A model generated the notes under the pieces. It searched no databases, was not told the DNA's origin, and worked only from the letters and a program-made list of their open reading frames with translations. The position numbers and the translations under genes were made by a program. 59,728 nucleotides of DNA from a virus. Lineage: Duplodnaviria; Caudoviricetes. Location: positions 1-59,728 of IMG/VR virus record IMGVR_UViG_3300009104_000024; one strand, given 5' to 3'. Below are positions 32,831-58,906 of the stretch, one piece after another. The stretch's first letter is position 1. Each line of letters opens with the position of its first letter.

Positions 32831-35800
32831 ATGCAAAAAGTTAATCTGCCTGACGGAAGAACATTAAAAATTCCTAACGATTTATCTGCTGAAAAGCGAG
32901 ATGAGTTAGCTAATGCAGTTAAAGCAGAATATAACATTGACATTAATGAAGGTTCTTTAGGTGAATGGTTAATAGATAAACCTAAATCAGTAGTTAGAGG
33001 ATTATCGCAAATGATACCTACAGGAGTAAAAGGTATTGCTGGTTTAACATTAGGAAGCGATAGCGATATAGTTAAAGGCATATCTGATTATCAAAGATAT
33101 ATTGCTACAGAATCGCCATTAGCATCTGACCCTAAATATAGAGATACATTTGGAACAAAACTTTCTGAAGGTGCTGGTTCATTAATTGGTTTTGGTGGAC
33201 TTTCGTATGCAGGTAGAAGATTAGCAGCTAAGGGTGTATTGAGTGATAAAGCAGGTCGTTTTGGTGTTCCTGGTTCATTAGCTGTACCTATGGGCATGGG
33301 TGAACAAGTAGATAGATTGGAGCAATCTAGAGCGTTGGGAGAAGAATCACCAGGTTTTTTAGCTGAAAAAACAGCCATTCTTGCTGGTGGTGTTATAGGT
33401 TTAAGTGAATTAGCACCTTTAGAAAGATTGTTTAGAGGCATTCCCAAAAATGCTTTAAAGAATCCTACAGTACAACAGTTACTTAATACACGATTAAGGT
33501 CAGCGATAGCAACAGGAACTGCTGAAGCTATTCAAGAAGCTGGAGCTGGTGTATTACAAAACTTAACAGCAGCAGGATTATATAGTGATGAAATACCTAT
33601 ATTTGATAGTGCATTAGAAGAGTTTACTATTGGTGGCATTTTAGGAGCAAGTGCTGATTTACTTGTTAATAGTCTTGCCAACAGAAGAAGTATTAGCAGT
33701 CAGCAATTAAGGGATGCAGAAACGAAAGCTAGAGACAATAGAACTAGTCTTCAATCACAAGATAAATTTGCTAGAGCACAAGAGCAAGGAATGGTTGAAG
33801 AGTATCAAGAACCTATTATAAAAGAAAAACCTGAAATAGATGTTCCAGCTATTGTTGATGTAGCTCCACCTGATTTAGGAGTAATAGAAAATCCTGATGG
33901 TCAATTTTCAGTTGTTGATTATAACGACTTAGAAAATCCTATACTAAGCTCACACGCTACCGAAGTTGATGCTCTATTAGAAAAAAATAATCAACAAACA
34001 AATTACGAAAGGAAAGTTTTACAAGTACAAGTTGATAATGACACATACATGATGGGAATGCCTGATAGCGATTCAGCTAAAACATTAGGTAGAACTGTTC
34101 TTGACCCTAACATTACGCAAATAAATTTATCTACTTTAATAGGATATGATTCTTCTATTTCAGAAGATTTAAAAAAAGAATTAAATAAAGAAAAATCTGC
34201 CACATATCCAGCACAGCCATATAGGCAGATGCTTGAAAATAAAAGAAAGAATTTAGAAAAAACTGCTAAATATTTAGAAAGTAAAGGTTTAGATTTAAAA
34301 AGTAGTTTTTCAATGCCTGAAGCTAAAAAAGTTTTAAAGCCTAAAGACTATAATCTAATGTTAGAAAGTTTTGCTAATCATGCTTTTACTGCTTCTGAAA
34401 AAGCAGGTGAACCTTCTATAAGAGAAGATAAATTAGATGTAACAATAAAGAATATTAAAGCTATTGCTGAATCTAAAAATATAGAATTAGACTTTAAAGA
34501 CCCAGCAGTTCGTTATGCAGCAAAACAATGGACAGGTTTTGAAGATATACCTAAAACAAGAAACAGAGGTGCTAAAGAACTTTTCTTAGCCAGAATACAT
34601 TCTCTTCCTGCATTTAATAGTAAAACTAAATTTCCTGATTTTAGACCTAGAGCTTACACAGGTGTAGACATGGCTAACTTTGTGGCTTCTGCACAAGACA
34701 TACAATTTACTGATGCTGACTTATTGGTAGCTGGTCCTGAAAGTATTAGAAATAAACCAGAAAATGTTAAACAATTTTTAAATGATTTAATTGAAAGTGG
34801 TAGAGCTAAAAAAATAAAAAACACAAATAAATATGAATTAACTGATGACTTTGAATACACAGTCGCCAGAAGACAAGAAGGGTTTAATGAAACACCAGAT
34901 GAATTTCGTGCAAGATTAGAAAGAGATAGGTCATTAGGTAAAAATAAATTATCTGATGAAGCTATAGATAGTCTTGTTGCGTCTGAAGAAGTAAGGCAAG
35001 AAAAGGTATTGCCACCAAAAGAAATTGAGAAAAAACTTATAGACTTTAATGAAACAATTGAAGAAGGTCGTACAAATAAATTTGCTAAAGAGTTAAGGAA
35101 AAAACTAAATAAAGTAGGATTAAGAGACACAGGTATAGTTGTTAGTAATGATATTTTATCTACTACTACATTAGCCGAAACTGAAACTGGACAAATAATA
35201 TTTGACCCTAGAAAAACTAGAGAAACTGCTACAGAAGGTGCAGTAGAAGGAGAATACGATAGAGATACAGACATTATTTTCTTATCGCTTAACTCTGTAA
35301 ATCCTGATGGCACAGCTACTGATGAACAAATACTACAAAGGTTAGATAAGATTCTTGACCATGAAATGATTCATGCGTTTAGAAAGAAAGATTTAATTAC
35401 TGAAAAGGAATATCAATATTTAAGAAACGAAGTTAAACGTAAAAAAGTTCCTACTGAATATGATGCTTCCAGCAAGAATGAAACTTTTTACACTAGAAGT
35501 CAAAGAATTAATAGTGGCATGGTACGACAAGCCACATCAGAAGGTAGGGCAAAAGAAGAAATAGAAGAATTTTTAGTAGAAGAAGCTATAGCTGAAATGT
35601 ATAGAGCCAGGGAGTTCAAACCTGTTACACCAAAATCTAAAGGCATATTAAATAGAATAGTTGAGTTCTTTAAATCTATGGGTCAAGCCATGCGTGTATC
35701 AGGCTACAGAGATTCTTCTGAAATATTTGCTGATATAGAAAGAGGTAAAGTAGGAGCTAGAGAAAGAGGACAAATACGAACCTTGCAAGAGCTAGATAAA

Positions 35801-38800
35801 ATATCTATGGCTAGAGAACAAGGTATTGTTGGTGGGTTAGGCATAACGCCTTCTGCTGTGCCTGAAGAACCTCGTGGTGAGGATAAATTAGATACTTCTG
35901 ACCCTCAATCAATAGCAGATGAATGGGGTGAAGGTGTTTTAATTACTCCAACTGTATCTTTTAATGATGTTAAATCAGATACAGACCCTATAACAGGTGT
36001 TACGTTGCCTTTGGAAGCTAGACAAAGAGGGGGTTTATACAATAAATGGGAATTAACACCAGAAGAATATGAAGCTGATAGAAAACAAATTTTAGATGAA
36101 TTTTATAGACCAACTGGTATTGGTGATGGAATTGAAAATATTAAAAGTATAGAAGTATTAAAGTGGCTTAGTAAAAATGGACCAACAGAAGATTATAGAG
36201 TTATTGCCAATAGACTATTAGTTCAACAAAGAAAATTAAAAAGAATAGTTGGCATTGAGGGATACTTTGCAATATTTAATGATGAACACGGAGGAAAACA
36301 AAGATTTATTGGTAAAGGTACGGATTACCAAAGTTTTCTTGGTGTTTCATATGCACCTTTTTTAAATGATGGTAGTTATAATGTTAAAGATTATAATCCT
36401 TATGGCGATAGCAAATTAGTACAACAAGTATATTTAAAAGATACCTCTTACACATCTTCACCAGGTCATAATGGTGTAAGTTTTGATACTATGTTGCACG
36501 AATTAGTGCATCAAACTACACAAGCTGCTACTAATTTTTATAGAGGTAGTAGAGCAACTGAACAATCTAAAAAACTTGTAAAAGATTTAGAAGAAGTTAG
36601 AAAAGAATTAATAAAAGAAATTGAAAAAAGAACTGACACTAAAGGTTCTATTGTTGAGGGTCAATATGTCAATGAAGATGCTGAAAATAAATTAAAGAGT
36701 GAATTTGGACAAGACGGAGCAGCAAAAATAGTATATGCAGCAAGTAAAATACAAGAAACTTTAGCAGTTGGATTTACTAATAGATATGCTCAAGACTTTA
36801 TGGATAGTATTCCATATAAAGGAACTAAAAAAACTTTATGGGATAAGTTTACTGAATCAATAAGAAAGCTATTAAGTTTACCTGCTAAAACTAATAGTTT
36901 ATTTTCTGAATTTTTAAGGATAAGTGGAAAATTAACAAATTTATCTAACGCACAATTAGAAGAACTAAATAGAGTTGGTGCTGATTATGATTATGGTCCA
37001 CCTGTTGCTAGCCTTGAAATGTCCGACCCTTCTATAGAATCAGAACTTTCTGATTTAAGAAGAGAACTATATGATGCAGAAAGTTTAGAGTCTGCCGATA
37101 GAGGTTATGTAGATGTAGAGGTAGGCAATCGTAATATGAGAAGAGTACAAAATATAAGAAATAAAATTGAAAGACTTGAAGAACAATTAAAACGAGAAGC
37201 AGAATTAAAACAACCAGTCACACCAGAACAGTTGCCTTTATTTAGTAGAACTCAAAAAGATGAGAAAAAAATAAGAACTATAGCTAGAGAAAATAGAAAA
37301 AGATTAAAGGAAGAATACAAAAATGATCCTGATGCTGTAGATGAAATTATTAAAGAATTTGAAGGCGAAGAATTATTTAGTGATGGTAGTGGTTTTATAG
37401 AAGGAATTACTACAAATAGAGGATATATGGATGACATTCCCTTGTCTTTTTCTTCTGAAAGATTATCTAAAAAAGTATTAGAAGATTATGGTTATGAAGA
37501 AATATTTGAAGGAGAAATGTCATCAGAGTTAAGAGATAAAGATAATCAACAAAATTATTATGTAGATTTAGGACAGAATAAATTTAGAGTTTACTTTAAT
37601 CGTTATGGTAATAAAAGAAACCAAGCGACTATTACTAATCCTACTTTAGATGAGTTAATGAATGAATCATGGTTTGAAAAAGAACGTAGGTCTTCTGACA
37701 TTCCTTTATTTAGTAGAGGACCTAGAGATGAATCGTCAGGTCATTTAGCTGATTATGTGCCTGCAGAATATGGTCCACCTGCACATCAACTAGATATAGT
37801 ATATGGCGATGAAAAAACAAAAGATGGTTATTATCCAGTTAGTTATGGTTTTACATATCCTAAAACTTCTCCAGATTATAGAACAAGAGAATTTACAGTT
37901 TATAGCACAGCTAGAACACCACTAGAACAACAAGAAGAGCGTGAGTTTATAAATAAACTTATGGAAATAAGAGGCAATCCAAATGCAGAAATAACTATGT
38001 ATCAAGCTGCACCACAAAGAGATTTAAGAGAAGGAGATTTAATAACTCCATTTTTAAGTGAAGCTGAAGCTCTTGTAGAAGATTCTAAAGTTACACAACA
38101 AGAAATTAGAGAAGCAGATAGAGCTAGAAGAAGGCAAGAACAGATAGATAAAAAAGGTGCTGTAGATTTACAACAAGAAAGATTGTTTAATCAAATGGAA
38201 GGAATATCAGATATTCTTGGTAGACCTGAAGTTACTCCATCAACAATACATACTTTTAAATTAAAAGCAGGAGATGTTCGTTGGGATGGTAATAATGGTT
38301 GGGCAAGATGGGGTTACTTCCCAAGAATAAAAGCTGTAGAAGATTTACCTTTATTTAGTAGAGCTGCCACAGATACTAAGCCTCCATATATGGACTTTAA
38401 TCGTAAACAGATTAGGAATTTTAGTAGTAATAAAGTTGGTTTTTATGATGGAGTAGAAATACCTTTAACTCATGTTGCACGAATGCGAGTTGAAGATTTT
38501 TTAAAACTTACTACAGCCAATCAAGAGGTAATTGATAATATAATAACAGGAGGTCCAACAGTTGCTTTATCTTCAGAGCCTATGGGCTTACTTCCAGCTT
38601 CTATAAGAAATCCTGATGCTATATTTGACTCAGAAATAGCAGATACTGCAATAATTCCTTCATTACCAAATTTAGAAATTAGAGGAAATGGTCAAGTAAT
38701 TAGCCATGAAGGCAGACATAGAGTTGCATTAATAGGACAAGGAGGTGGTAGAACTGTTCCTGTATTTATAAATTTTCCTGAAGGTAATGTAGAACAAAAT

Positions 38801-41800
38801 ATACCTAATCCTAGTGGTCAAACTTTACAAGAACAAGGTGTTACTTTTTTAAGAAATCAGGAATTTAATAACTTTACTGTTCCTATAAATAGGTTAGGAG
38901 AAATTGCACCTTTACATAGAGATAGTGCCCAAACTAAAGATAAATTAGATTATGCAGTAGAGATTGCTAGTCAGCCTGACTTACTTGCACCCTCTGGAAA
39001 TATACCTTTATTTTCTAGGCAATCTAAAACACCTTCAATAAAAGAACTTCCTGGAGAAGTTTCTGAGTATCGTGATAATTACAATATAACAGATACAGAA
39101 TTACTAAATGCTATAGAAGCTACAGAAATGAGCAGAAAATCAGGAACAAGAGAAAATCCTGGTCAGTTAGATACTACTATAGTAGAAATATTTGAAAACA
39201 ATCCCAACCTTTTAGAAGCTAGTAAAAACTTTCTTAGAAAGTTTACTAATAAAAAAGGTAACTTAATTGTATACAGAGCTTTAAATATACCTGCCTCTAT
39301 GCGTATAAAAAACTATGGGCAGTTTCCTCAAGATATTTACGCAAGTGCAACTATAGACCATAGAGAAGCTAAACAAATAGCAAGTAGTGTAGAAATAAGG
39401 TCAAGAGCTAAAGAAGAAGCACAATCAGAAATACTTAGATTTGAAGTGCCAATGGATAGAGTAAAAGCTTATGTTCCATCTTTAATAGTGGCTGGTAGAG
39501 AGCGATTAATAGAGATGAAAGAACAAGAATTTATTGATGCAGGGATAGAAAGTGAAATGGATGAAGACTTTAATCCTGATGAATATAATGACTACACTAG
39601 AGAACAATACATAGAAGAATATGAAAATGATTTAGATGCTTCTATAGATGAAGCTGAAGTTTTAGTTGACTTACGAGGAATCAAACCAACTTATCAGTAC
39701 ACACCTGGTAGTGGTATAACAGGTAGAGAACCATCTATAACTAGAGATATACCTTTATTCTCAAGAGCCAGAAGATTTACAGGTGAAGCTAATACACAAG
39801 AAAAAGTAGCATTACAAAAGTCTACAGAAATAATTGAAGATTTTGTAAAGAAAACTCCTAGAGGTGAAATACCTTTATACAATACAAATGCCTCTGATGT
39901 TGCTTTAAAAGCTGCGTATGACTATATAAATGACCCTAGTGCTCCTACTATAAATGAACTTCCTAATTACTCTAGAGTTGAAAAAGAAATACCTGAAGAT
40001 TTACAAGGTGTAGTTAATAGAGGTGGGTATGTTGCTCCAAGGAAGCCTTGGTATGAAAGATTAATTAGTGATGTTTCTGACCCTGTAACTAATATTAGAA
40101 AGTTTTTTAAAGATACAAGACAAAACTATATTGATAAGTTAGATAAAGTAGAAAAGAAAATAGCACAAGGAAGTGAAGAGTTTGAAGAAGTAAGACTTTT
40201 AAATAATATAGCCGACACCTCTGCTATAGCTGCATTAAGAATGGCTGATAAAGCTAGAGGTATATTTCAAGGTATGCTTACAAGAGGATTTGCTACAGAT
40301 GTTATTGACGGAGAAGCTGCATTAACAACTACTGAAGAACTAGAAATAGATACAGTATATAACCCATACATTGATGGCGATACAGGTACTGGTGGTTTAT
40401 TACAAATTACTGCTCCTTTATTTTCTGACCCATTAGTAGATTTAGAAGGAATATTTGGAACATATGCCAAATTAAAAAGAGTTCAAGGATTTCAAAAACA
40501 AAATAGACAAGTTGAATCCCCTTTTACACAACAAGATTTAGAATTTATAAATAATATTGAAGCTAACTATCAAGTTGTTGTTGAGGTATATAACAACTAT
40601 CAAAAATGGAACAATAAATTAGTAGACTTTGCACAAGCTAAAGGCTTATTAAATGAAGCACAAGCTACAAAATGGAGAGAAGAATCAACTTACTATCCTT
40701 TTTATAGAGATATGGTTGAAGAAGAGGGTATAACTGCACCAAGAATAGGTGGTGGTTCTTTACCTAATAACCCATTAAATTTAAAACTTAAAGGTTCTGA
40801 AGCAGAAATAAATGTTTCTCCATTAGAAGCTATAGCAAGAAACTCTTTGTCTATTCTTACTGCTTCCATGAAAAATGACGGAGCAACAAAGTTAATAGAA
40901 AGTTTAGCAATTATGGGTGAAGCAGAATACATCACCCCACAACAATTAAAAAATAAACAAGGTGCAAAAACTATATTTGTTTTTGAAAATGGATTTAAAA
41001 AACACTACAACATAGAAGACCCTGATTTATTCCATAGTATCAGAGCATTAGGTGGAGCAGAAGTTGGATTTATAACTAAACTTTTAGCTATGCCAGCTAC
41101 GTTATTAAGAGATACAGTAACTCGTGACCCTGGATTTATAGCAGTAAACTTACTTAGAGATACGCTATCTGCAACTGTAACATCAGGTGTTAATTTATCA
41201 TCACCTTTTACAGGTGGTGATGGATTTGTGCCAATGATAGATACCATTAAAAATATGTTTGGCGACATGACAGACTTAGAAAAGTTTGGTGTTATTGGTG
41301 GATATGATTTCGCTAATGACGAAGGTGATGTTGTTGACTATATGGCACGAATAAGAAGACAACAAGGTCTTACGGCTAACAATGGTATGTCAGCAGAAAA
41401 AGCTTTCTTTTATGTTTGGGATGGTCTTGGTGGACTAACAACAAAATCTGATGGAGCTACTCGTAAAGGTGTGTTTGATGCAGTTTATAAACGCATGAAA
41501 AACACTATTGATGAAAGAACAGGTGAAGTTTACACAGATGCAGCAGCACAATCAGAAGCAGCTTTTCAATCCTTAGAGGTTATAAACTTTGGTCGTAGAG
41601 GACTATCACCAATGTTTAGAGTTATTACGTCTGCAATACCTTTTTTAAACGCTAGAATACAAGGTCTTGACGTTATATACAGGTCATTTAGAGGAACGTA
41701 TTCAGCACAAGATAAACTACAAGAAGGTGAAACTTTAGATGAATTAAAGAACAGAATAATGCGAAGAACTGCATTGAGAGGTGGAACTATTATGGCTTCT

Positions 41801-42781
41801 ACCTTAATTTACTATCTATTAGTTAGTGATACAGAAGAATACAAGGAAGCCAAGAGAGAACTAAGAGATGACAATTGGTTGATACCAACTCCATTTGATT
41901 ACACATTAAAAGTTCCTATTCCTTTTGAGATTGGAATGATGTTTAAGGCACTACCTGAGAGGTTCATAGACCTCGTTCTAGGAGAGAAAGTGTTAGGACT
42001 AAAGGAATCAGTAGAGAAAGACCCTATCGAGTCTATAAGGAGGCAATTAGGAACTTCTGCAAACATACCTTTCTTATCAGGTGACATCAGCATACAAGCA
42101 TTAAAGCCTATTTTTGAAGCTACAATTAATAGAAATTCTTTTACAGGTCAAGAAATTGTTCCTTACTATAAGCTGAAGAGAGAGCCAGGTTATCAAGCAT
42201 CTCCACAAACTAATGAACTAGCTAGAGTTATCGGTGAAGCCTTAAATATTTCACCAACTAAAATTGAGCACGTTATCAATGGATATACAGGAACACTCGG
42301 AGGTTATGTGTTGGATATTGTGGATTCACTAACTAGAACTGCAACAGGTTCTCCATACATACCAAATAATATTTTTAGTAACCCAACTAACTTTGCCCAA
42401 TACCCATTAATTAAAAGACTGGTCGTGGATAATAAAAAAATGGGAGGGTTGCAACAACAGTTCTATGAACTTAGAGGTGAGGTAGATAGAGCCGTTACGA
42501 CTATGAATAGTCTTAAACAAGAAAAAAGGTTTGATGAACTCAGAGCTTATAAGTCTGATGTAAAAGGCTTAATGAATGTCAAAGGCAGAGTAAGAGCAAT
42601 GGAAAGATACTTGGACAATTGGAGGAAGAGAAGAGATAGATTGATGCGTAGGACTGATATATCGGTTATGGTTAAAGCAGAAATGATTCAAGACTTAGAA
42701 GCAGAAAGAGATAAGCGTTTAGCGTTTATACCTGAACTAAGGAAGAAAGCTAACGTGCCTATCCTCCAGGGAGGACTGTAA
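32831..42781 (+). CDS. Large polyvalent protein (ejected): two zincin motifs, ART-like and ParB-like modules, LPD38-like C-terminus
   Basis: HEMIH (35360) and HELVH (36497); HEGRHR; VYRAL..SAT..EAEV; repeated PLFSR linkers; domain names inferred by eye. Confidence 0.75.
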   Translation: MQKVNLPDGRTLKIPNDLSAEKRDELANAVKAEYNIDINEGSLGEWLIDKPKSVVRGLSQMIPTGVKGIAGLTLGSDSDIVKGISDYQRYIATESPLASDPKYRDTFGTKLSEGAGSLIGFGGLSYAGRRLAAKGVLSDKAGRFGVPGSLAVPMGMGEQVDRLEQSRALGEESPGFLAEKTAILAGGVIGLSELAPLERLFRGIPKNALKNPTVQQLLNTRLRSAIATGTAEAIQEAGAGVLQNLTAAGLYSDEIPIFDSALEEFTIGGILGASADLLVNSLANRRSISSQQLRDAETKARDNRTSLQSQDKFARAQEQGMVEEYQEPIIKEKPEIDVPAIVDVAPPDLGVIENPDGQFSVVDYNDLENPILSSHATEVDALLEKNNQQTNYERKVLQVQVDNDTYMMGMPDSDSAKTLGRTVLDPNITQINLSTLIGYDSSISEDLKKELNKEKSATYPAQPYRQMLENKRKNLEKTAKYLESKGLDLKSSFSMPEAKKVLKPKDYNLMLESFANHAFTASEKAGEPSIREDKLDVTIKNIKAIAESKNIELDFKDPAVRYAAKQWTGFEDIPKTRNRGAKELFLARIHSLPAFNSKTKFPDFRPRAYTGVDMANFVASAQDIQFTDADLLVAGPESIRNKPENVKQFLNDLIESGRAKKIKNTNKYELTDDFEYTVARRQEGFNETPDEFRARLERDRSLGKNKLSDEAIDSLVASEEVRQEKVLPPKEIEKKLIDFNETIEEGRTNKFAKELRKKLNKVGLRDTGIVVSNDILSTTTLAETETGQIIFDPRKTRETATEGAVEGEYDRDTDIIFLSLNSVNPDGTATDEQILQRLDKILDHEMIHAFRKKDLITEKEYQYLRNEVKRKKVPTEYDASSKNETFYTRSQRINSGMVRQATSEGRAKEEIEEFLVEEAIAEMYRAREFKPVTPKSKGILNRIVEFFKSMGQAMRVSGYRDSSEIFADIERGKVGARERGQIRTLQELDKISMAREQGIVGGLGITPSAVPEEPRGEDKLDTSDPQSIADEWGEGVLITPTVSFNDVKSDTDPITGVTLPLEARQRGGLYNKWELTPEEYEADRKQILDEFYRPTGIGDGIENIKSIEVLKWLSKNGPTEDYRVIANRLLVQQRKLKRIVGIEGYFAIFNDEHGGKQRFIGKGTDYQSFLGVSYAPFLNDGSYNVKDYNPYGDSKLVQQVYLKDTSYTSSPGHNGVSFDTMLHELVHQTTQAATNFYRGSRATEQSKKLVKDLEEVRKELIKEIEKRTDTKGSIVEGQYVNEDAENKLKSEFGQDGAAKIVYAASKIQETLAVGFTNRYAQDFMDSIPYKGTKKTLWDKFTESIRKLLSLPAKTNSLFSEFLRISGKLTNLSNAQLEELNRVGADYDYGPPVASLEMSDPSIESELSDLRRELYDAESLESADRGYVDVEVGNRNMRRVQNIRNKIERLEEQLKREAELKQPVTPEQLPLFSRTQKDEKKIRTIARENRKRLKEEYKNDPDAVDEIIKEFEGEELFSDGSGFIEGITTNRGYMDDIPLSFSSERLSKKVLEDYGYEEIFEGEMSSELRDKDNQQNYYVDLGQNKFRVYFNRYGNKRNQATITNPTLDELMNESWFEKERRSSDIPLFSRGPRDESSGHLADYVPAEYGPPAHQLDIVYGDEKTKDGYYPVSYGFTYPKTSPDYRTREFTVYSTARTPLEQQEEREFINKLMEIRGNPNAEITMYQAAPQRDLREGDLITPFLSEAEALVEDSKVTQQEIREADRARRRQEQIDKKGAVDLQQERLFNQMEGISDILGRPEVTPSTIHTFKLKAGDVRWDGNNGWARWGYFPRIKAVEDLPLFSRAATDTKPPYMDFNRKQIRNFSSNKVGFYDGVEIPLTHVARMRVEDFLKLTTANQEVIDNIITGGPTVALSSEPMGLLPASIRNPDAIFDSEIADTAIIPSLPNLEIRGNGQVISHEGRHRVALIGQGGGRTVPVFINFPEGNVEQNIPNPSGQTLQEQGVTFLRNQEFNNFTVPINRLGEIAPLHRDSAQTKDKLDYAVEIASQPDLLAPSGNIPLFSRQSKTPSIKELPGEVSEYRDNYNITDTELLNAIEATEMSRKSGTRENPGQLDTTIVEIFENNPNLLEASKNFLRKFTNKKGNLIVYRALNIPASMRIKNYGQFPQDIYASATIDHREAKQIASSVEIRSRAKEEAQSEILRFEVPMDRVKAYVPSLIVAGRERLIEMKEQEFIDAGIESEMDEDFNPDEYNDYTREQYIEEYENDLDASIDEAEVLVDLRGIKPTYQYTPGSGITGREPSITRDIPLFSRARRFTGEANTQEKVALQKSTEIIEDFVKKTPRGEIPLYNTNASDVALKAAYDYINDPSAPTINELPNYSRVEKEIPEDLQGVVNRGGYVAPRKPWYERLISDVSDPVTNIRKFFKDTRQNYIDKLDKVEKKIAQGSEEFEEVRLLNNIADTSAIAALRMADKARGIFQGMLTRGFATDVIDGEAALTTTEELEIDTVYNPYIDGDTGTGGLLQITAPLFSDPLVDLEGIFGTYAKLKRVQGFQKQNRQVESPFTQQDLEFINNIEANYQVVVEVYNNYQKWNNKLVDFAQAKGLLNEAQATKWREESTYYPFYRDMVEEEGITAPRIGGGSLPNNPLNLKLKGSEAEINVSPLEAIARNSLSILTASMKNDGATKLIESLAIMGEAEYITPQQLKNKQGAKTIFVFENGFKKHYNIEDPDLFHSIRALGGAEVGFITKLLAMPATLLRDTVTRDPGFIAVNLLRDTLSATVTSGVNLSSPFTGGDGFVPMIDTIKNMFGDMTDLEKFGVIGGYDFANDEGDVVDYMARIRRQQGLTANNGMSAEKAFFYVWDGLGGLTTKSDGATRKGVFDAVYKRMKNTIDERTGEVYTDAAAQSEAAFQSLEVINFGRRGLSPMFRVITSAIPFLNARIQGLDVIYRSFRGTYSAQDKLQEGETLDELKNRIMRRTALRGGTIMASTLIYYLLVSDTEEYKEAKRELRDDNWLIPTPFDYTLKVPIPFEIGMMFKALPERFIDLVLGEKVLGLKESVEKDPIESIRRQLGTSANIPFLSGDISIQALKPIFEATINRNSFTGQEIVPYYKLKREPGYQASPQTNELARVIGEALNISPTKIEHVINGYTGTLGGYVLDIVDSLTRTATGSPYIPNNIFSNPTNFAQYPLIKRLVVDNKKMGGLQQQFYELRGEVDRAVTTMNSLKQEKRFDELRAYKSDVKGLMNVKGRVRAMERYLDNWRKRRDRLMRRTDISVMVKAEMIQDLEAERDKRLAFIPELRKKANVPILQGGL

Positions 42782-51453: not shown

Positions 51454-51766
51454 CTTTTATATCCTCGTTTAATTCATCTTCGTAAACTATCACAGGTGAT
51501 TCTTGCACCTCGGCAATAGCTACACTCTCTCGACCTACTTGATAGAACCTATCTTCTTCTAATTGACGTATGGCAGATTCTAATAGCCACTCGTTTGAGG
51601 TTATCAAAGGGTCATCTAATAATGAAATAGCAAAACTTAAAGCATCCATTTCGGTATCAAAAACCCAAACTAAATGAACCCACTTAGCACTACTCTCTTG
51701 TGAGAAAACATTCTTAGGGTCTGGAATATCTAATTGGTATGTGTGTCTTACTACTGCAAACATCAT
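51431..51766 (-). CDS. Hypothetical protein
   Basis: ORF with TATAAT just upstream of the start codons. Confidence 0.65.
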   Translation of the reverse strand: MMFAVVRHTYQLDIPDPKNVFSQESSAKWVHLVWVFDTEMDALSFAISLLDDPLITSNEWLLESAIRQLEEDRFYQVGRESVAIAEVQESPVIVYEDELNEDIKDEQKSIH

Positions 51767-51890
51767 TACATTATAGGCAAAATGCTATCAAATTGAAAGC
51801 CACATGAAAAATTCTCAGTAGCTCACATCCATACGGAAAAAAAATATTTATGCGACTGGTATTTTGAGCTACGCCAGTAAACTGCTTCTA

Positions 51891-51906
51891 CGTTTCATGT
51901 GAAACA
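51891..51906. promoter_or_regulatory. parS-like palindrome
   Basis: CGTTTCATGTGAAACA, 14/16 to TGTTTCACGTGAAACA. Confidence 0.7.
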
Positions 51907-51949
51907 TAGACTATCTTAAACGACTATCTTATACGATAAAAAAATGGAT

Positions 51950-51988
51950 AAAAAAAAGGGATGAGTTCTAGGAAAACCCACCCCTTTT
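51950..51988 (-). terminator. Intrinsic terminator
   Basis: AAAAGGGGUGGGUU/AACUCAUCCCUUUU stem with G-U pairs only on minus strand, then U tract. Confidence 0.75.
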
Positions 51989-52042
51989 AACATCTACTAA
52001 CTAGACATGGAGGTTATCTTGTTCTAAGTCTTAACAAGATAT
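51950..52042 (-). ncRNA. Candidate ~90-nt sRNA with anti-Shine-Dalgarno seed
   Basis: Promoter TTGCAT-17-TACAGT (52075-52047), 5' hairpin, AACCUCCAUG, terminator 51988-51950; no ORF. Confidence 0.6.
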
Positions 52043-52078
52043 AAATACTGTAATACTTTCGATTGCATAATGCAAGTG

Positions 52079-52110
52079 TTATCCACAAGTTATTCACACA
52101 GTTATCCACA
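52079..52110 (+). promoter_or_regulatory. Three head-to-tail DnaA boxes
   Basis: TTATCCACA 52079, TTATTCACA 52090, TTATCCACA 52102. Confidence 0.85.
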
Positions 52111-52160
52111 GGTTTTCCAGACTCATCCATAAAAATAAATATTCCTAGTTTTTTGCACGC

Positions 52161-52208
52161 CCACTATATCTTGTGTTGATTAGTTGAGAACACCACTAGA
52201 TATAGACG
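52161..52208. promoter_or_regulatory. Tandem NrdR boxes
   Basis: CCACTATATCTTGTGT (52161) and CCACTAGATATAGACG (52193) fit acaCwAtATaTwGtgt; 32-bp spacing. Confidence 0.75.
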
Positions 52209-52338
52209 GAGGACTTCCTGCGACTGGGAAAATATTTCCCTGGGAGCTACAACAGCTCATCAAAACGTAGCAGTAGGTTAGGTTTCAGATTTCCTACAGG
52301 TAATTTTATCTACCTGTAGTATTTGCTTTTTTCAGACC

Positions 52339-52381
52339 AAAAAAAAAGGCAACAACCACTTATTAAAGTAGTTATTGCCTT
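52339..52381 (-). terminator. Intrinsic terminator closing the leftward early operon
   Basis: 16-bp stem fully paired on minus strand plus U tract. Confidence 0.85.
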
Positions 52382-52426
52382 ATTTATTTTAAAGTTAATT
52401 GTTATGAACCCATTGATGAATTTTAT

Positions 52427-52732
52427 TCATATACGTTCCTCCCTTAATTCACACTCTTCTCTAGTACGAATAAAGGCTAGTCTCCTTGCCCTGGTCATTT
52501 CTATAGAATCCTTAGATTCAAACCTCTCAGGATAAAGTTTATCTAACCACCTTTCGACTACGAATATATTTTCGTTATAGAAACTTAGTAAATCAAAGAA
52601 TTCAGCAGACTTACTGCTTGGCTCACCTGATAATTCCTCAATATTAGTGCCTATAATTTTAGTGTAGATATTAGAGTTAATATCTATAAGAGCCTTCAAA
52701 GACTCCTCAAGAATTTCTTTACTCATCATCAT
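52427..52732 (-). CDS. Hypothetical protein
   Basis: AAGGAG RBS before ATG ATG ATG. Confidence 0.65.
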   Translation of the reverse strand: MMMSKEILEESLKALIDINSNIYTKIIGTNIEELSGEPSSKSAEFFDLLSFYNENIFVVERWLDKLYPERFESKDSIEMTRARRLAFIRTREECELREERI

Positions 52733-52973
52733 CACTCCTTGGAAATGCTTGTATGTCGTCAGGTTCAATATCACAACCTGATATACCAAATTCATGACAA
52801 AGTTCGTAATATGGGTCTCGACAAGTTGCAAAAATATCAGCTTGTCTTTCCCAGTCAAAATTTTCTTCTGCTACGTTTAAAGCCTCATTAAGTTCACTTG
52901 CCTCAACAACTTGTGTGAAGATAGCATTATCTTTGTTGGTTTTTATAACCAACCATTCTGTTTTATTACTCAT
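52719..52973 (-). CDS. Hypothetical acidic protein
   Basis: GGAGG RBS. Confidence 0.75.
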   Translation of the reverse strand: MSNKTEWLVIKTNKDNAIFTQVVEASELNEALNVAEENFDWERQADIFATCRDPYYELCHEFGISGCDIEPDDIQAFPRSDDDE

Positions 52974-53004
52974 AATTTTTCCTCCATTTTAAGTAATAGT
53001 TAGT

Positions 53005-53066: not shown

Positions 53067-53161
53067 TGTAAATTGAACCTCCACACTTCGTTTCTTAGAG
53101 CGAAACTGAAGGCAAGTTGACCTGGGATATCTCCCAAATCAACCTACCCTTAGAATCGTTT

Positions 53162-54412
53162 CTATGCTACGAGACTATTCTTATCCACATAAATAACTTC
53201 ACCAAAAGGTAAATTATTAGAATAAGAACTTTCCTCCGTAACGCACCATATAACAGGAACTTCAGGCTGAACGTCAGCATCAACCAATCCGAATCCGTCT
53301 GTAAAATAAACGAATGCTTTTACATCCTGGACTTCATCCGAATAATCATTGAAGAGATTAAAAGGAGGATTAAATTCTGTTCCTCCTCCTCCTCTAGCTT
53401 CAAGTTTTACCTCTTCGCCCTGGTCAAGTTCATACACATCCCACCATTCACCATTAGAATTTTTTCTTACGACTGTATCGCAATAACAAACTCTAATTTT
53501 TTCTAAACCACACGATTCAGCCATTGAAATAATTTCAGTAGTGAATATGTTTAGTTCGTCTTGGTCAATTGAACAAGATGTATCTATGGCTATAGCTAAC
53601 TCACCTCCCTGGGAAGATTTAACTTTACTAGGTAAATATAAATTTCTCCAGGTATGACGTTTATTAGGTCTCGCCCACGTTCTATCGTCAGCCATAGAAC
53701 TTGAAAGAAAATCGCTTAACAGTTCATGCCAGTTAAAATTGATTTCCTGTAATTCTTGCATTCTGCGACCTATCGCAGAGCCTGAATCACTTCCTATAGA
53801 TTTCTCCAGTTTGTCAGCTTTAGATACTGCATTCCTGATTTCAGTTTGAAGATCAGACAATTCTGAATCACCTAAAGGTTTTCCTTCTTCGTCTTGAGCC
53901 TGTATGACTTCACCTACTGGCACAGGAAGTTCATCCCATTCAGTAGAGGAAACGTCTATCCCCTCACCTTCATGTCCTGTAATATCATCTACAGTATCTT
54001 GTAAAGAATCATCATCTTCTGCCAAAATTTGATACACCTTTTCAGCAGTCATACCTCTATATTTATTATCAAGTAAACCACCTTCAGGTAATTTCATTCC
54101 TAAATCCCACCTAAGATAAGCATTAATTATATAGTCAGTTGCGTAATTCCATAGAACGTGATGCCTACTACTTCCTTTTCGCAAGGGATGTTCCCATATG
54201 ACGTGGCTAGCTTCGTGAACTAAGACTGCTTGTAATTCCTTAACAGAAATACTTTTGACAAAATCTTTATTCCAAAAAATTCTTTGTCCGTCAGTAGCTA
54301 ACGTATCAAAAGAAGCATCTTCAACCAGTTCTAAGTTGAGCAACATTGAAGCCATACCAATATTACCCTTCATTAGTTTTGCTCTAGCTTTTATAAGTTT
54401 TTGTTCAGTCAT
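53162..54412 (-). CDS. VWA domain protein with N-terminal metallopeptidase (DUF2201-like)
   Basis: ATDG, HEASH, WNYATD; MIDAS-like DTSCS, GGGGT, YFTDG; GGAGG RBS before ATG 54412. Confidence 0.88.
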   Translation of the reverse strand: MTEQKLIKARAKLMKGNIGMASMLLNLELVEDASFDTLATDGQRIFWNKDFVKSISVKELQAVLVHEASHVIWEHPLRKGSSRHHVLWNYATDYIINAYLRWDLGMKLPEGGLLDNKYRGMTAEKVYQILAEDDDSLQDTVDDITGHEGEGIDVSSTEWDELPVPVGEVIQAQDEEGKPLGDSELSDLQTEIRNAVSKADKLEKSIGSDSGSAIGRRMQELQEINFNWHELLSDFLSSSMADDRTWARPNKRHTWRNLYLPSKVKSSQGGELAIAIDTSCSIDQDELNIFTTEIISMAESCGLEKIRVCYCDTVVRKNSNGEWWDVYELDQGEEVKLEARGGGGTEFNPPFNLFNDYSDEVQDVKAFVYFTDGFGLVDADVQPEVPVIWCVTEESSYSNNLPFGEVIYVDKNSLVA

Positions 54413-55358
54413 CTTTACCTCCAAAAGCCTTATTAAAGAAACTTCCTTTAAGGTCTCCTACAGAACTTTCTAAATCATCTGCAACCTTCTTTCGTTTAGC
54501 TTCTCCCAATTCAGTTTCATCTCTAAGAGAATCATAAGAATTGATTGAGGCAAAAACAGAAACAAGACTTTGATGAGCATTAGATATGTCTGCATCATTC
54601 CCTAAAATGTCAGAGTTAATTGAGGGAAGCATATCAATAGACTGTTTTAATTTCTCAAAACTGGTCTTATGAAATGTTTCACCATTCTTTAACTTATCGA
54701 CAATATGATTTACTTGTTCAAGTAAAGCCTCAACAGTAACCTTAAAAACATTTCTTACATTGTTTGCAAGTCTGTTTTCAGTCTCTTGTTGAATGCTAGC
54801 TTTCATTTTGTCAGAGACATTTAAACGAATATCAGAAGATTTAGTTATGTCCTGAATTAGTTCTTTCTTAAAATCAAAAACAAATTTGCTTCTAAGTTTT
54901 TCAACGTCAGGATAATCTTCTTCATTAAATGCAGAGCCTAATTTTCTTTCAGCTACAGAAACAAAAGAATCATAATTTTCAAGAAAACTTTCTGCTTCCT
55001 CAAAAAAATCATCTTTAGCTTCTTGCATTTTCTCGTCTAGCAAATCTAATTGTGTACTTGGACACAATCTCCACCCACTAGTGCTAGTTGAATCAGAATC
55101 CGATTCACTATCGCTCCAGGGAACAGTTAAAGCATAATAGTATTCTCTACGAATCCTATTCGTTATACGTCTGAATATCTTATTAATATTCTCTCCGTAC
55201 ATATGCTTAGAAACGTGCAATGTTCTTTCATCTGCACCTACGTTACTTTCTAACCCTTCTCGTAAACTTTTATCTACCTTAATACCACTAGGATGTTTAA
55301 CAGTTAAACTAACCAGTAATGCTTGTTTAGATAAAAGGTTTTTATTATTTTTATTCAT
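54405..55358 (-). CDS. Helical hypothetical protein (DUF3150-like)
   Basis: GGAGG RBS; between ATPase and VWA genes; family call inferred. Confidence 0.6.
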   Translation of the reverse strand: MNKNNKNLLSKQALLVSLTVKHPSGIKVDKSLREGLESNVGADERTLHVSKHMYGENINKIFRRITNRIRREYYYALTVPWSDSESDSDSTSTSGWRLCPSTQLDLLDEKMQEAKDDFFEEAESFLENYDSFVSVAERKLGSAFNEEDYPDVEKLRSKFVFDFKKELIQDITKSSDIRLNVSDKMKASIQQETENRLANNVRNVFKVTVEALLEQVNHIVDKLKNGETFHKTSFEKLKQSIDMLPSINSDILGNDADISNAHQSLVSVFASINSYDSLRDETELGEAKRKKVADDLESSVGDLKGSFFNKAFGGKDD

Positions 55359-55385
55359 AAACCCTCCAGTCTATATTATTAATAA

Positions 55386-55481: not shown

Positions 55482-56570
55482 TTATACCTCTAAGTCTTGA
55501 TGCTTAACTTTGAACTCATTGAAAGTTGTTGTTTCAACAAGTTCAGTTCTTGCATTGATTAGAGAACGAACAAAAAATACTTCGTATTCAGGAGTTGGAA
55601 ATTGCTCTATATATTTCAGAGCATTTTCAAAATAACTTTCAACCAAAGAATCGCTAACTTCTTTAATTACAGTTATCAGCGCAACGACTGTAGCAAAATA
55701 TATTCCGTTCTGTTTTTTCTTATCCTTAGCCTTTTCAGGAGAATCAATTTTCCCCTCACAAATTTTTTGCAAGTCAGGAACATCTTCTTTGAGTTGCAAG
55801 AAAGATGCAAATTCAATTGATGCAGTTTCGCCTACATTAATGTCTGCGAATTTCTGTATAAATGAATTTTCAGGATTAGTCTTTAAAGTGCTAGACAATC
55901 TTGTCCAGGAACGAGGGCAAGGCTGAGGAGCAATGACTTTAGGATCAAAAACATTCAACCAGTTAGGCTGATAATTTAAGAATCCTAAAATGTCAGGATG
56001 AACATCATTCTTGACTGCCCAATTGAACCAGTCGTTAGAATCGTGAACGAACTCAATCATTGCACACCTGGAATAGCAATGAGAAGGAATCTTATTAGAC
56101 CCCGCCCTATCGCTAGCCTTATTGGAAGCACAAACAATTACCCAATTACCTTTTCCATTTTCAGGAGTTGGTAATTCATAATCTCCTATTCTTTTCTCAT
56201 ACATAAGTTGAGATAGAACAGTTTGCATTGAATGGTGAGACTGCCCAAATTCATCCAGGAAAAGCATACCTTCTCCACTAACAGGAAGATTACCTAAAAA
56301 GGCTCTCTTCTGTTTGCCTTCCTCAATATAAGGAATGCCTGATAGGTCATAAGACTCATACAAACTACTTCTAAAATCTATCCAACCATATTCTTTTGCA
56401 GTTGGATTGACTTTATCTGTAACCACTTTTCTTCCTTCAGCCAAGATGTCTCGCACCTCTTCGACTATTGCAGACTTTCCAATACCAGTTCCTCCTAAAA
56501 GGAATGGCGTATTGTTAGCCTTTATTTCGCATTGCATCATATACAACGCTTCACTAGGTTTATATTTCAT
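55482..56570 (-). CDS. MoxR-like AAA+ ATPase
   Basis: GGTGIGKS Walker A, LFLDE Walker B, ASN sensor, PRSW. Confidence 0.9.
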   Translation of the reverse strand: MKYKPSEALYMMQCEIKANNTPFLLGGTGIGKSAIVEEVRDILAEGRKVVTDKVNPTAKEYGWIDFRSSLYESYDLSGIPYIEEGKQKRAFLGNLPVSGEGMLFLDEFGQSHHSMQTVLSQLMYEKRIGDYELPTPENGKGNWVIVCASNKASDRAGSNKIPSHCYSRCAMIEFVHDSNDWFNWAVKNDVHPDILGFLNYQPNWLNVFDPKVIAPQPCPRSWTRLSSTLKTNPENSFIQKFADINVGETASIEFASFLQLKEDVPDLQKICEGKIDSPEKAKDKKKQNGIYFATVVALITVIKEVSDSLVESYFENALKYIEQFPTPEYEVFFVRSLINARTELVETTTFNEFKVKHQDLEV

Positions 56571-56616
56571 TTTACCTCCATGAAATAATTATAGTTAAGT
56601 TAGCAGAAATGCTAAC

Positions 56617-58474: not shown

Positions 58475-58633
58475 GACCCTCCAGTCTGTTTCGTTTTTAA
58501 AATTGGCTAGAGGCAATAAACTTAGATTTGTCTTAACAATGCACGTTTTATATTCGTAGGCATTGACCACATAAATTTATTACCTCACTCATTCAGCTAA
58601 CAGAAGCCACCTGTTAGGACATTGGAGGATGTC
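58475..58633 (-). ncRNA. Extended type III hammerhead-like ribozyme (CUGAAUGA core) sequestering an RBS
   Basis: UGUC^CUAACAG-GUGGCUU-CUGUUAG-CUGAAUGA-GU...15-bp stem...AC-GAAA-CA; CCUCCA pairs with UGGAGG. Confidence 0.72.
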
Positions 58634-58906
58634 ACTACTGTCCGATTATCGTTAACGCCTCCCCAACTTAGATTGTGTTGGTTCTTTGGGTACGCATTTT
58701 GTTTTGAAGCTTTACTTCTATCTTCGTGGGTAATTCTTGAGACCCTCATCTTCAGTTAAGCCCTGTCACGACCTGAAGCACTATCTTGTTCTACTCTATA
58801 AAACCTCCATTGGTTTAATTGAATATTTAATAATACAGGAACACACCATAATAGCTAGCATAATGTGAGCATTACATAACCAGGGAAAAAGGAACATAAT
58901 GCAAGC

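Follow-up and report, generated by a model that had tools for sequence, protein, structure and literature searches.

In the virus record IMGVR_UViG_3300009104_000024 (Duplodnaviria; Caudoviricetes), a short stretch of the minus strand near 52 kb reads as a small RNA (sRNA) gene lying downstream of a leftward operon. It raises the question of whether a phage encodes an RNA directed against the ribosome-binding sites (RBSs) of its own genes. The window analyzed here is the complete virus record (59,728 bp, G+C approximately 35%). The original prediction for this locus, made from the letters of the window, described a promoter whose -35 lies in a palindrome, a 5′ hairpin, an exposed seed, and a terminator, and proposed a trans-acting repressor of early mRNAs. 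All of the described elements were present on the minus strand. On balance, we think that the locus probably encodes a phage-borne repressor that acts in trans on the adjacent operon, by an anti-Shine-Dalgarno (anti-SD) pairing made specific by the flanking bases.

The sRNA gene and its conservation

The gene consists of the following elements.

51950..52041 (minus): predicted sRNA, approximately 90 nt (92 nt as folded), with ends inferred from the promoter and terminator
52047..52075 (minus): promoter read from the sequence, TTGCAT (52075-52070), 17-nt spacer, TACAGT (52052-52047)
52015..52041 (minus): 5′ hairpin UAUCUUGUU / AACAAGAUA, 9 bp with a 9-nt loop, found by folding
52006..52015 (minus): seed AACCUCCAUG, an unpaired AACCUCC running into AUG; probability of CCUCC being unpaired, at least 0.99
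52014-52008 (minus): conserved seed core ACCUCCA, from the comparison with relatives
51990..52008 (minus): small middle hairpin with the loop GUUAG, found by folding; the motif CUAGUUAG recurs in several clades
51950..51988 (minus): intrinsic terminator, a 16-pair stem (51988-51954) and then 8 U, from terminator prediction and compensatory changes

Folded alone, the 92-nt RNA reached -30.3 kcal/mol (z = -3.9), which was equalled by one of 200 shuffled sequences. The promoter was not reported by a simple promoter scan because it matches the consensus at only 8 of 12 positions.

We used the DUF2201 protein encoded upstream as the anchor and obtained 34 related viral loci (protein identity 35-97%), designated here by L numbers. 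In 25 of them, the DUF2201 gene is followed on its own strand by the sRNA module. For seven of the nine loci lacking it, the downstream sequence is shorter than 1 kb, and one of these seven is the same contig as a module-bearing locus; of the 34 loci, L033 and L038 alone have enough downstream sequence and showed no module. A second scan, based on an ATPase alignment, gave 207 relatives, 80 of which were kept, and further sRNA variants were found among them. In total, 110 loci were scanned (window included), and the 56 with a candidate represent 33 distinct modules and 31 distinct RNAs.

The 5′ hairpins were too divergent for sequence alignment, and thus each RNA was folded alone to judge the 5′ hairpin and the accessibility of the core. 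A helix closed within 4 nt 5′ of the core in 25 of the 31 distinct RNAs, with 18 different arm sequences, and the core was located in a hairpin loop instead in four RNAs. CCUCC was present in all 31, with a mean probability of being unpaired of at least 0.8 in 21 and at least 0.5 in 28. The terminator stem showed compensatory changes at five of eight consensus pairs (14 sequences), and a tail of 7 or more U followed the stem in every version. MAFFT and RNAalifold applied to 14 whole RNAs recovered the terminator alone. Thus, this is a conserved RNA gene, in which the promoter, 5′ hairpin, unpaired CCUCC core, and terminator are kept while the sequence changes. The free-standing gene of the original prediction was borne out, and its architecture is common to the 31 distinct RNAs. 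A long U tail after the terminator is typical of Hfq-type sRNAs in Gram-negative bacteria, and the other features of that architecture, an intrinsic terminator and a single-stranded seed, were found as well.

The whole window gave no match to Rfam 15 at the gathering thresholds. At E <= 10 in the region 51700-52500, the matches overlapping the RNA were GibS (22.1 bits; gathering threshold 115), Yfr19 (21.5 bits; 70), and L20_leader (19.2 bits; 58.7). These are unrelated families, and the sRNA belongs to no described RNA family. Two mini open reading frames (ORFs) were considered as coding alternatives and rejected: on the plus strand, the only reading after GGAGGT is TTG-TTC-TAA, and on the minus strand, AUG-UCU-AGU-UAG has no Shine-Dalgarno (SD) sequence and is absent from L031.

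Pairing of the seed with the adjacent operon

The leftward operon (58.9 to 52.4 kb) encodes a MoxR-like ATPase, a DUF3150 protein, a DUF2201/VWA protein, and small proteins. TGGAGG occurs nine times on the coding strand of this 6.5-kb operon vs. 17 occurrences over the other ~113 kb (both strands counted), a density approximately 9-fold higher. The candidate target sites are listed below, with ranks among the 77 called genes of the window.

56574..56582 (minus): RBS CAUGGAGGU of the MoxR-like AAA ATPase gene (55482-56570), 3 nt before AUG; best seed duplex, -15.7 kcal/mol
58478..58483 (minus): RBS UGGAGG in the loop of the hairpin AGAC-UGGAGG-GUCU, gene start 58468; rank 2, -13.9 kcal/mol
55363..55368 (minus): RBS UGGAGG of the DUF3150-like gene (54405-55358); rank 3, -13.8 kcal/mol, and rank 11 with accessibility correction
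54417..54423 (minus): RBS UGGAGGU of the DUF2201/VWA metallopeptidase-like gene (start 54412); rank 4, -13.0 kcal/mol, and rank 8 with accessibility
52981..52987 (minus): RBS AUGGAGG of an 84-aa gene (52719-52973); rank 2 with accessibility correction

When a 15-nt seed was used, all four top-ranking duplexes of the 77 genes fell in the leftward operon, and late genes with the SD AAGGAG(A) gave -3 to -7 kcal/mol. The ATPase RBS, which is conserved in clade A relatives, also ranked first with accessibility correction, an ungapped-helix score with opening costs that placed the operon genes at 1 (ATPase), 2, 8, 11, and then 49 or lower. The seed therefore fits the RBSs of the leftward operon, with the ATPase RBS as the best or near-best predicted target by duplex and accessibility scores, as had been proposed. 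A U precedes the SD (position SD-1) in five of five GGAGG RBSs of the operon vs. none of five other GGAGG RBSs, when the start-proximal GGAGG is judged. In the sRNA, the partner of this U is the A after CCUCC. The consensus 3′ end of 16S rRNA has a U after CCUCC, with which the U at SD-1 mispairs.

Some SDs of these phages are located in hairpin loops. A conserved GGGGUUCAAGAAAC precedes a hairpin with the SD in its loop in L005, L007, L008-L015, L032, L022, L026, L028, and L035, and such SD-loop hairpins have co-varying stems (CUAAC-UAAUGGAG-GUUAG and CUGAC-UUUGGAG-GUCA). The window has no RBS hairpin of the exact GGGGUUCAAGAAAC type, and a GGGUUCAAGAAAC stretch lies in a hammerhead-like core at 56995-56950. 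After the ATPase gene, AUGGAGGGCAGAAAUGCCCUCCGUUUUUUU (55477-55440, minus) forms a terminator-like hairpin, the 5′ arm of which is another UGGAGG site.

The original prediction carried the caveat that anti-SD complementarity is generic. This caveat is largely answered by the comparison between lineages. The bases beside CCUCC vary by lineage, and they match the SD flanks of the lineage's own upstream operon, as follows.

Clade A: seed (U/A)AACCUCCAUG, including CCUCCAUG; operon SD (C/A)AUGGAGGU(U), i.e., (C/A)AUGGAGG
L022/L035/L036/L028: seed CCUCCAAAAA (CCUCCAAA); operon SD UUUGGAGG
L029: seed CCUCCAAGG (CCUCCAAG); operon SD CUUGGAGG
L214/L230: seed AGACCUCCAAG; operon SDs GGAGGUCU and CUUGGAGG
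L257: seed AAAACCUCCUA (CCUCCUA type); operon SD UAGGAGGUUUU, 11 bp at two genes
L018/L201: seed UAUCCUCCAAU (L018-type AUCCUCCAAU); operon SD AUUGGAGGAU
L253: seed AAUCCUCCA; operon SD UGGAGGAUU
L019: seed UAAAUCCUCC; operon SD GGAGGAUUUA, at four genes

The last three groups (L018/L201, L253, and L019) have (A)AUCCUCC with GGAGGAU(U) in common. We performed a permutation test in which the seeds were swapped among clades, and counted how often a swapped assignment fitted as well as the true one. Among seven clades, the observed contiguous in-register pairing was reached by 22 of 5040 permutations and the observed duplex energy by 1 of 5040. For six clades found later, the counts were 1106 and 1690 of 100000 (~0.01-0.02). 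With 17 loci, which are not independent, own seeds gave 7.52 paired bases vs. 6.62 for cross pairings (0 of 100000 permutations). As the loci are related, these counts are not exact probabilities.

We propose the following mechanism. The RNA of approximately 90 nt would be transcribed from its own sigma-70-type promoter, under the control of DnaA and/or an operator-binding protein, and would display ACCUCCA unpaired between the 5′ hairpin and the small middle hairpin. The seed would pair with the SD region (A/U)UGGAGG(U) of several genes of the upstream operon, some of which have their SDs in the loops of 4-5-bp hairpins. The seed:SD duplex would block binding of the 30S subunit and thereby shut the genes off, perhaps followed by mRNA decay, and late genes with AAGGAG SDs would be spared. 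Because the U at SD-1 pairs with the sRNA and mispairs with 16S rRNA, and because the late genes use AAGGAG, one set of genes could be silenced without a general inhibition of translation.

Several observations weigh against this reading. The sRNA is known here from DNA sequence alone. A 9-nt match is at the chance level: 16 other sites in the window have at least 9 contiguous matches to the 27-nt seed stretch, and TGGAGGT was observed six times in the window with 5.2 expected. Beyond chance are the clustering of TGGAGG in the operon and of the DnaA boxes at the sRNA promoter, and the recurrence of the entire module in relatives. The conserved core comprises just 6-7 nt. The target signal within the window also depends on the scoring scheme, as a crude full-length score with opening costs placed the primase-helicase gene first of 77 and the operon genes at 2, 9, 10, 14, 15, 20, and so on, without enrichment. 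The co-variation is uneven: the own seed does not give the best fit in three cases (the window, L031, and L032), and the L029 seed fits the RBSs of L031 better than the seed of L031 itself. The clades share ancestry, and the gene starts and RBS sets were taken from a simple gene caller. An underpowered control with the genes downstream of the sRNA (four usable loci) gave no own-vs-cross signal (~25000 of 100000 permutations); the mean pairing was 5.1 in this control (four loci) vs. 7.5 for the upstream operon.

In addition to the ATPase RBS, the original prediction had the sRNA pair with two ordered patches in the operon leader. All three complementary patches exist (56582-56574, CAUGGAGGU; 58810-58802, AUGGAGGUU; 58790-58782, AACAAGAUA), and the leader features, together with a further orphan site outside the leader, are the following.

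58802..58810 (minus): orphan SD-like site AUGGAGGUU with no start codon in range, the first leader patch, found by sequence match
58782..58790 (minus): AACAAGAUA, the second leader patch, part of the conserved motif CAAGAUAGUG; no co-variation with the sRNA
53076..53083 (minus): a second orphan SD-like site, UGGAGGUU, some 17 nt 5′ of the point at which a hammerhead-like motif is predicted to be cleaved

The leader retains CAAGAUAGUG in relatives whose sRNA has a very dissimilar 5′ arm (UAGCUAA...), and AUGGAGGUU is replaced by AUAGGAGGUU in L008-L015 and L032. We therefore rejected the two-patch pairing: the second patch does not follow the changes of the 5′ arm, and the first itself varies. 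Pairing through the second patch would also need the 9-bp hairpin of the sRNA to be opened, and this patch resembles the GATAGTC repeats that follow the sRNA terminator. As a separate observation, the leader (58823-58740, minus), together with those of L005-L015 and L032, contains the orphan SD-like site, then AGUAGAnCAAGAUAGUG, and then a hairpin, whose stem co-varies (CUUCAG/CUGAAG vs. AACUGG/CCAGUU vs. UACUGG/CCAGUA) and whose loop GUCGUGACAGGGCUUAA is conserved.

The target messages had also been described as processed by ribozymes, and here the evidence is divided. Hammerhead-like cores (CUGAnGA ... GAAA) are located between the operon genes at ~53066-53003, 57767-57715, 56995-56950, 56691-56665, and 55426-55390 (minus); besides the motif at 53.0 kb, the other four read CUGAAGA...GAAA. 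For the 53066-53003 motif, a type III hammerhead with three helices can be drawn if an additional base is allowed after A9, with AUC preceding the putative cleavage site. Between the window and L008, compensatory changes are seen in all three of its helices. The Rfam hammerhead models gave no score at E <= 1 over the operon or at E <= 10 on 201 nt.

The control region and alternative roles of the locus

The DNA around the sRNA gene contains further elements.

52063-52075: palindrome TTGCATnATGCAA (minus), TTGCATAATGCAA on the plus strand, with the -35 inside it; conserved in relatives
52079..52110 (minus): three DnaA boxes, TGTGGATAA, TGTGAATAA, and TGTGGATAA, in one orientation and 11-12 nt apart, from a box scan
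51892..51928 (minus): GATAGTC direct repeats (51928-51922 and 51915-51909) and the palindrome GTTTCACATGAAAC, directly 3′ of the terminator and kept in relatives
52346..52381 (minus): terminator closing the leftward operon, upstream of the sRNA unit; from terminator prediction, conserved in relatives
51763..51798 (minus): putative promoter of the downstream gene, TTGATA-17-TATAAT, read from the sequence

The relatives keep a palindromic -35 (TTGCrwTnTGCAA) and a -10 of TATATT or TACAGT, and the -35 palindrome looks like an operator. The box starts are 52079, 52090 (1 mismatch), and 52102, and 3 nt separate the promoter-proximal box from the -35. Exact TTATCCACA boxes occur three times in the window, and two of them are at the sRNA promoter with the one-mismatch box between them. 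At least two DnaA boxes (TTATNCACA, up to 1 mismatch) were found within 48 nt upstream of the -35 in 26 of the 33 distinct modules, and in 24 of 33 the gap between the -35 and the nearest box is exactly 3 nt. The constancy of this spacing speaks for a role of the boxes in promoter function. The remaining seven distinct modules have no boxes; five of these keep the palindromic -35, and two have neither. Several box-less modules have a CACAAyATnTTGTG-type palindrome upstream instead, with the RNA and core retained. The replacement of the boxes in other lineages speaks for DnaA as one possible input among several, outside the core function of the RNA. The proposed coupling to DnaA is thus supported in part, by the conserved box position in 24 modules, and other lineages have the other palindrome in place of the boxes.

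The GATAGTC repeats and the following palindrome look like protein-binding sites, and the operon leader holds a similar sequence, AAGATAGTG. An iteron-like repeat, (G)ACyAGTAAATATTT, is present in two to three copies around the sRNA (51843-51862 and 52220-52240 in the window; also in L019, L020, L029, and L031). Both kinds of repeat are probably protein-binding sites, possibly related to an origin. An all-A/T run, ATAAAAATAAATATT (~52130-52144), adjoins the DnaA box cluster as read in the window alone.

The locus might instead be chiefly a part of the phage replication origin, in which DnaA binds the boxes, a short transcript activates or primes replication, and CCUCC is incidental. Such transcripts have been reported for some phage and plasmid origins. 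The three phased DnaA boxes, which include two of the three exact ones in the window, and the repeats on both sides of the RNA (GATAGTC twice and ACyAGTAAATATTT-like) suit an origin, as do the primase-helicase gene 1.3 kb away and the lack of a match to any DNA polymerase family among the 67 window proteins scanned. The boxes and iteron-like repeats leave room for a link to replication and to that extent count against a purely repressive role. However, the exact 3-nt distance in 24 of 33 distinct modules links the boxes with the promoter and not with an unwinding element, the RNA and core persist in the seven distinct modules without boxes, and an origin leaves the co-variation between seed and SD flanks unexplained. 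We regard the origin as an unlikely main role, although it and the repressor role are not mutually exclusive.

A similarly low probability is given to the idea that the RNA acts on host messages, or mimics the 3′ end of 16S rRNA to titrate a host or phage factor, rather than acting on its own operon. ACCUCC is identical to part of the anti-SD consensus of 16S rRNA, so that any strong GGAGGU SD could pair with it; our target search covers the phage genes. The flanks of the core nevertheless track the SD flanks of the phage's own operon, including positions that depart from 16S pairing, and such diversification is not what one would expect of a molecule that mimics an invariant rRNA end.

It is very improbable that the locus serves the downstream genes (51766-51130) in cis, whether as a leader or attenuator or solely as an insulating promoter-terminator pair. 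Every version has a terminator with a G-rich 5′ arm (GGGG, GGGAGG, GGAGG), so that an alternative CCUCC:GGGG pairing in which the core competes with this arm can be drawn, and the core is partly paired in L029, but the terminator is strong, the core is free in the ensemble of most versions, the downstream gene has its own conserved promoter with the window ATG 7 nt after the -10, and L005 and L004 carry other sequence after the RNA in place of the downstream region of the window. The co-variation speaks against all three of these alternatives as the main role.

The downstream gene (MFAVV...; a 111-aa ORF with its ATG at 51763) appears leaderless in the window, and its orthologue in the L017 lineage has an ordinary leader with an SD. 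Its promoter shares a GCA-N3-TGC core with the palindrome of the sRNA promoter, and thus one protein may control both promoters. The next gene (51453-51130) showed weak matches to Arc-like repressors.

The phage and its relation to known RNA regulators

The plus strand of the window carries structural and lysis genes, including Rz-like spanins. Rz-like spanins are typical of phages of Gram-negative hosts, and they point to such a host here. A protein family scan of the 67 window proteins identified Sak, an exonuclease, RusA, and the primase-helicase, and no integrase family was matched among them. A single ORF of 3316 aa (32831-42781, plus) matched only PHROGs of unknown function and presumably encodes a giant virion or ejection protein. 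The closest relatives by large terminase, at 52-60% identity, are two uncultured-host phages, DSL-LC04 and 023Pt_psg01, and the Pelagibacter phages HTVC027P and HTVC023P. A 9.9-kb stretch was found in marine/seawater metagenome runs, and all 20 runs among the matches listed are DNA.

Searches beyond the anchored relatives yielded no further modules. The 1.5-kb sRNA region gave a single, chance-like match of 45 nt to cultured-phage DNA. In the phage records that rank as the nearest four by terminase (two are from cultured pelagiphages), the promoter+CCTCC pattern was absent, and the DUF2201 gene was not found by a protein search made without a positive control. A loose promoter pattern retrieved 22 viral loci, none with the full module in a regular-expression scan, and 120 bacterial-genome stretches from many phyla, 80 of which were made into loci L061-L140, again with no full module; the pattern is too short to have recovered modules from these collections. 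An ATPase pattern used against bacterial genomes, as a search for prophages and hosts, gave 195 matches and no relatives.

Among the closest known systems is c4 of phages P1 and P7 (Rfam family C4), a small trans-acting antisense RNA that covers the RBS of phage messages. Its specificity differs between related phages by a few bases; it pairs through two complementary patches and is cut from the transcript of its target, upstream of the target. The RNA proposed here would likewise cover RBSs in trans with a specificity set by a few bases. In contrast to c4, it has its own promoter downstream of the operon terminator (52381-52346), a single seed, and several candidate targets; the two patches and shared transcript of c4 have no counterpart; the SD patch is conserved, and the second patch (58790-58782) is not conserved in pairing. 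The Rfam c4 model gave no match at E <= 10 in 51700-52500.

The sRNAs of the RsaE/RoxS type in Gram-positive bacteria use an unpaired C-rich stretch between hairpins to pair with the G-rich SDs of several messages. The unpaired C-rich stretch between hairpins and the multiple SD targets, which are predicted here, resemble this type. The phage-borne RNA belongs to a different sequence family with no Rfam match, and it differs also in a CCUCC whose lineage-specific flanks track the phage's own SDs. In phage T4, the endoribonuclease RegB (with RegA) inactivates early messages at GGAG SDs and aids the early-to-late switch. This is a functional analogy without homology, as RegB is a protein nuclease and the present candidate is a base-pairing RNA.

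The lambda sRNA LPR1/PreS is reported to be a trans-acting phage RNA tied to replication that acts on host genes and enhances translation of dnaN, which shows that sRNA control is used in lytic development (bioRxiv 10.1101/2024.10.31.621285). By comparison, the RNA studied here has phage genes as candidate targets and would be expected to repress them. Genes in polycistronic phage transcripts have been described as flanked by hammerhead ribozymes (Perreault et al. 2011, PMC3088659). The hammerhead-like cores between the genes of the target operon resemble this arrangement; they lie outside the sRNA and did not score with Rfam. The titles and abstracts of the literature on phage and pelagiphage small RNAs, anti-SD RNAs, and DnaA-linked promoters described no RNA of this kind.

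To our knowledge, regulatory RNAs of phages are known from a handful of model phages, with almost nothing for the abundant uncultured phages of the sea. Here, a whole sRNA family is readable from sequence, and natural compensatory variants point to its targets. The natural variants of seed and SD are ready specificity controls for reporter assays, and the family is suited to RNA family databases for the annotation of marine viromes.

More tentatively, the sRNA could be the center of a switch for a class of genes, a possibility that we hold to be less probable than simple repression of the adjacent operon. The genes would share a private SD flavor (UGGAGG with lineage-specific flanks, partly mismatched to the ribosome) and would be silenced as a set by one sRNA, which would look like the anti-SD of the ribosome and yet recognize the private flanks, and the promoter of which would be gated by the host DnaA. 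The sRNA may also act on messages that hammerhead-like ribozymes have divided into single genes. Shut-off would then follow the replication state, for example, when multiplying phage copies titrate DnaA, and seed and SD would co-diversify in the manner of immunity specificities, keeping each switch private. If true, the phage would sort its genes into classes by the exact flavor of their RBSs and switch one class off with a single sRNA, and this switch would be linked to the replication initiator of the host.

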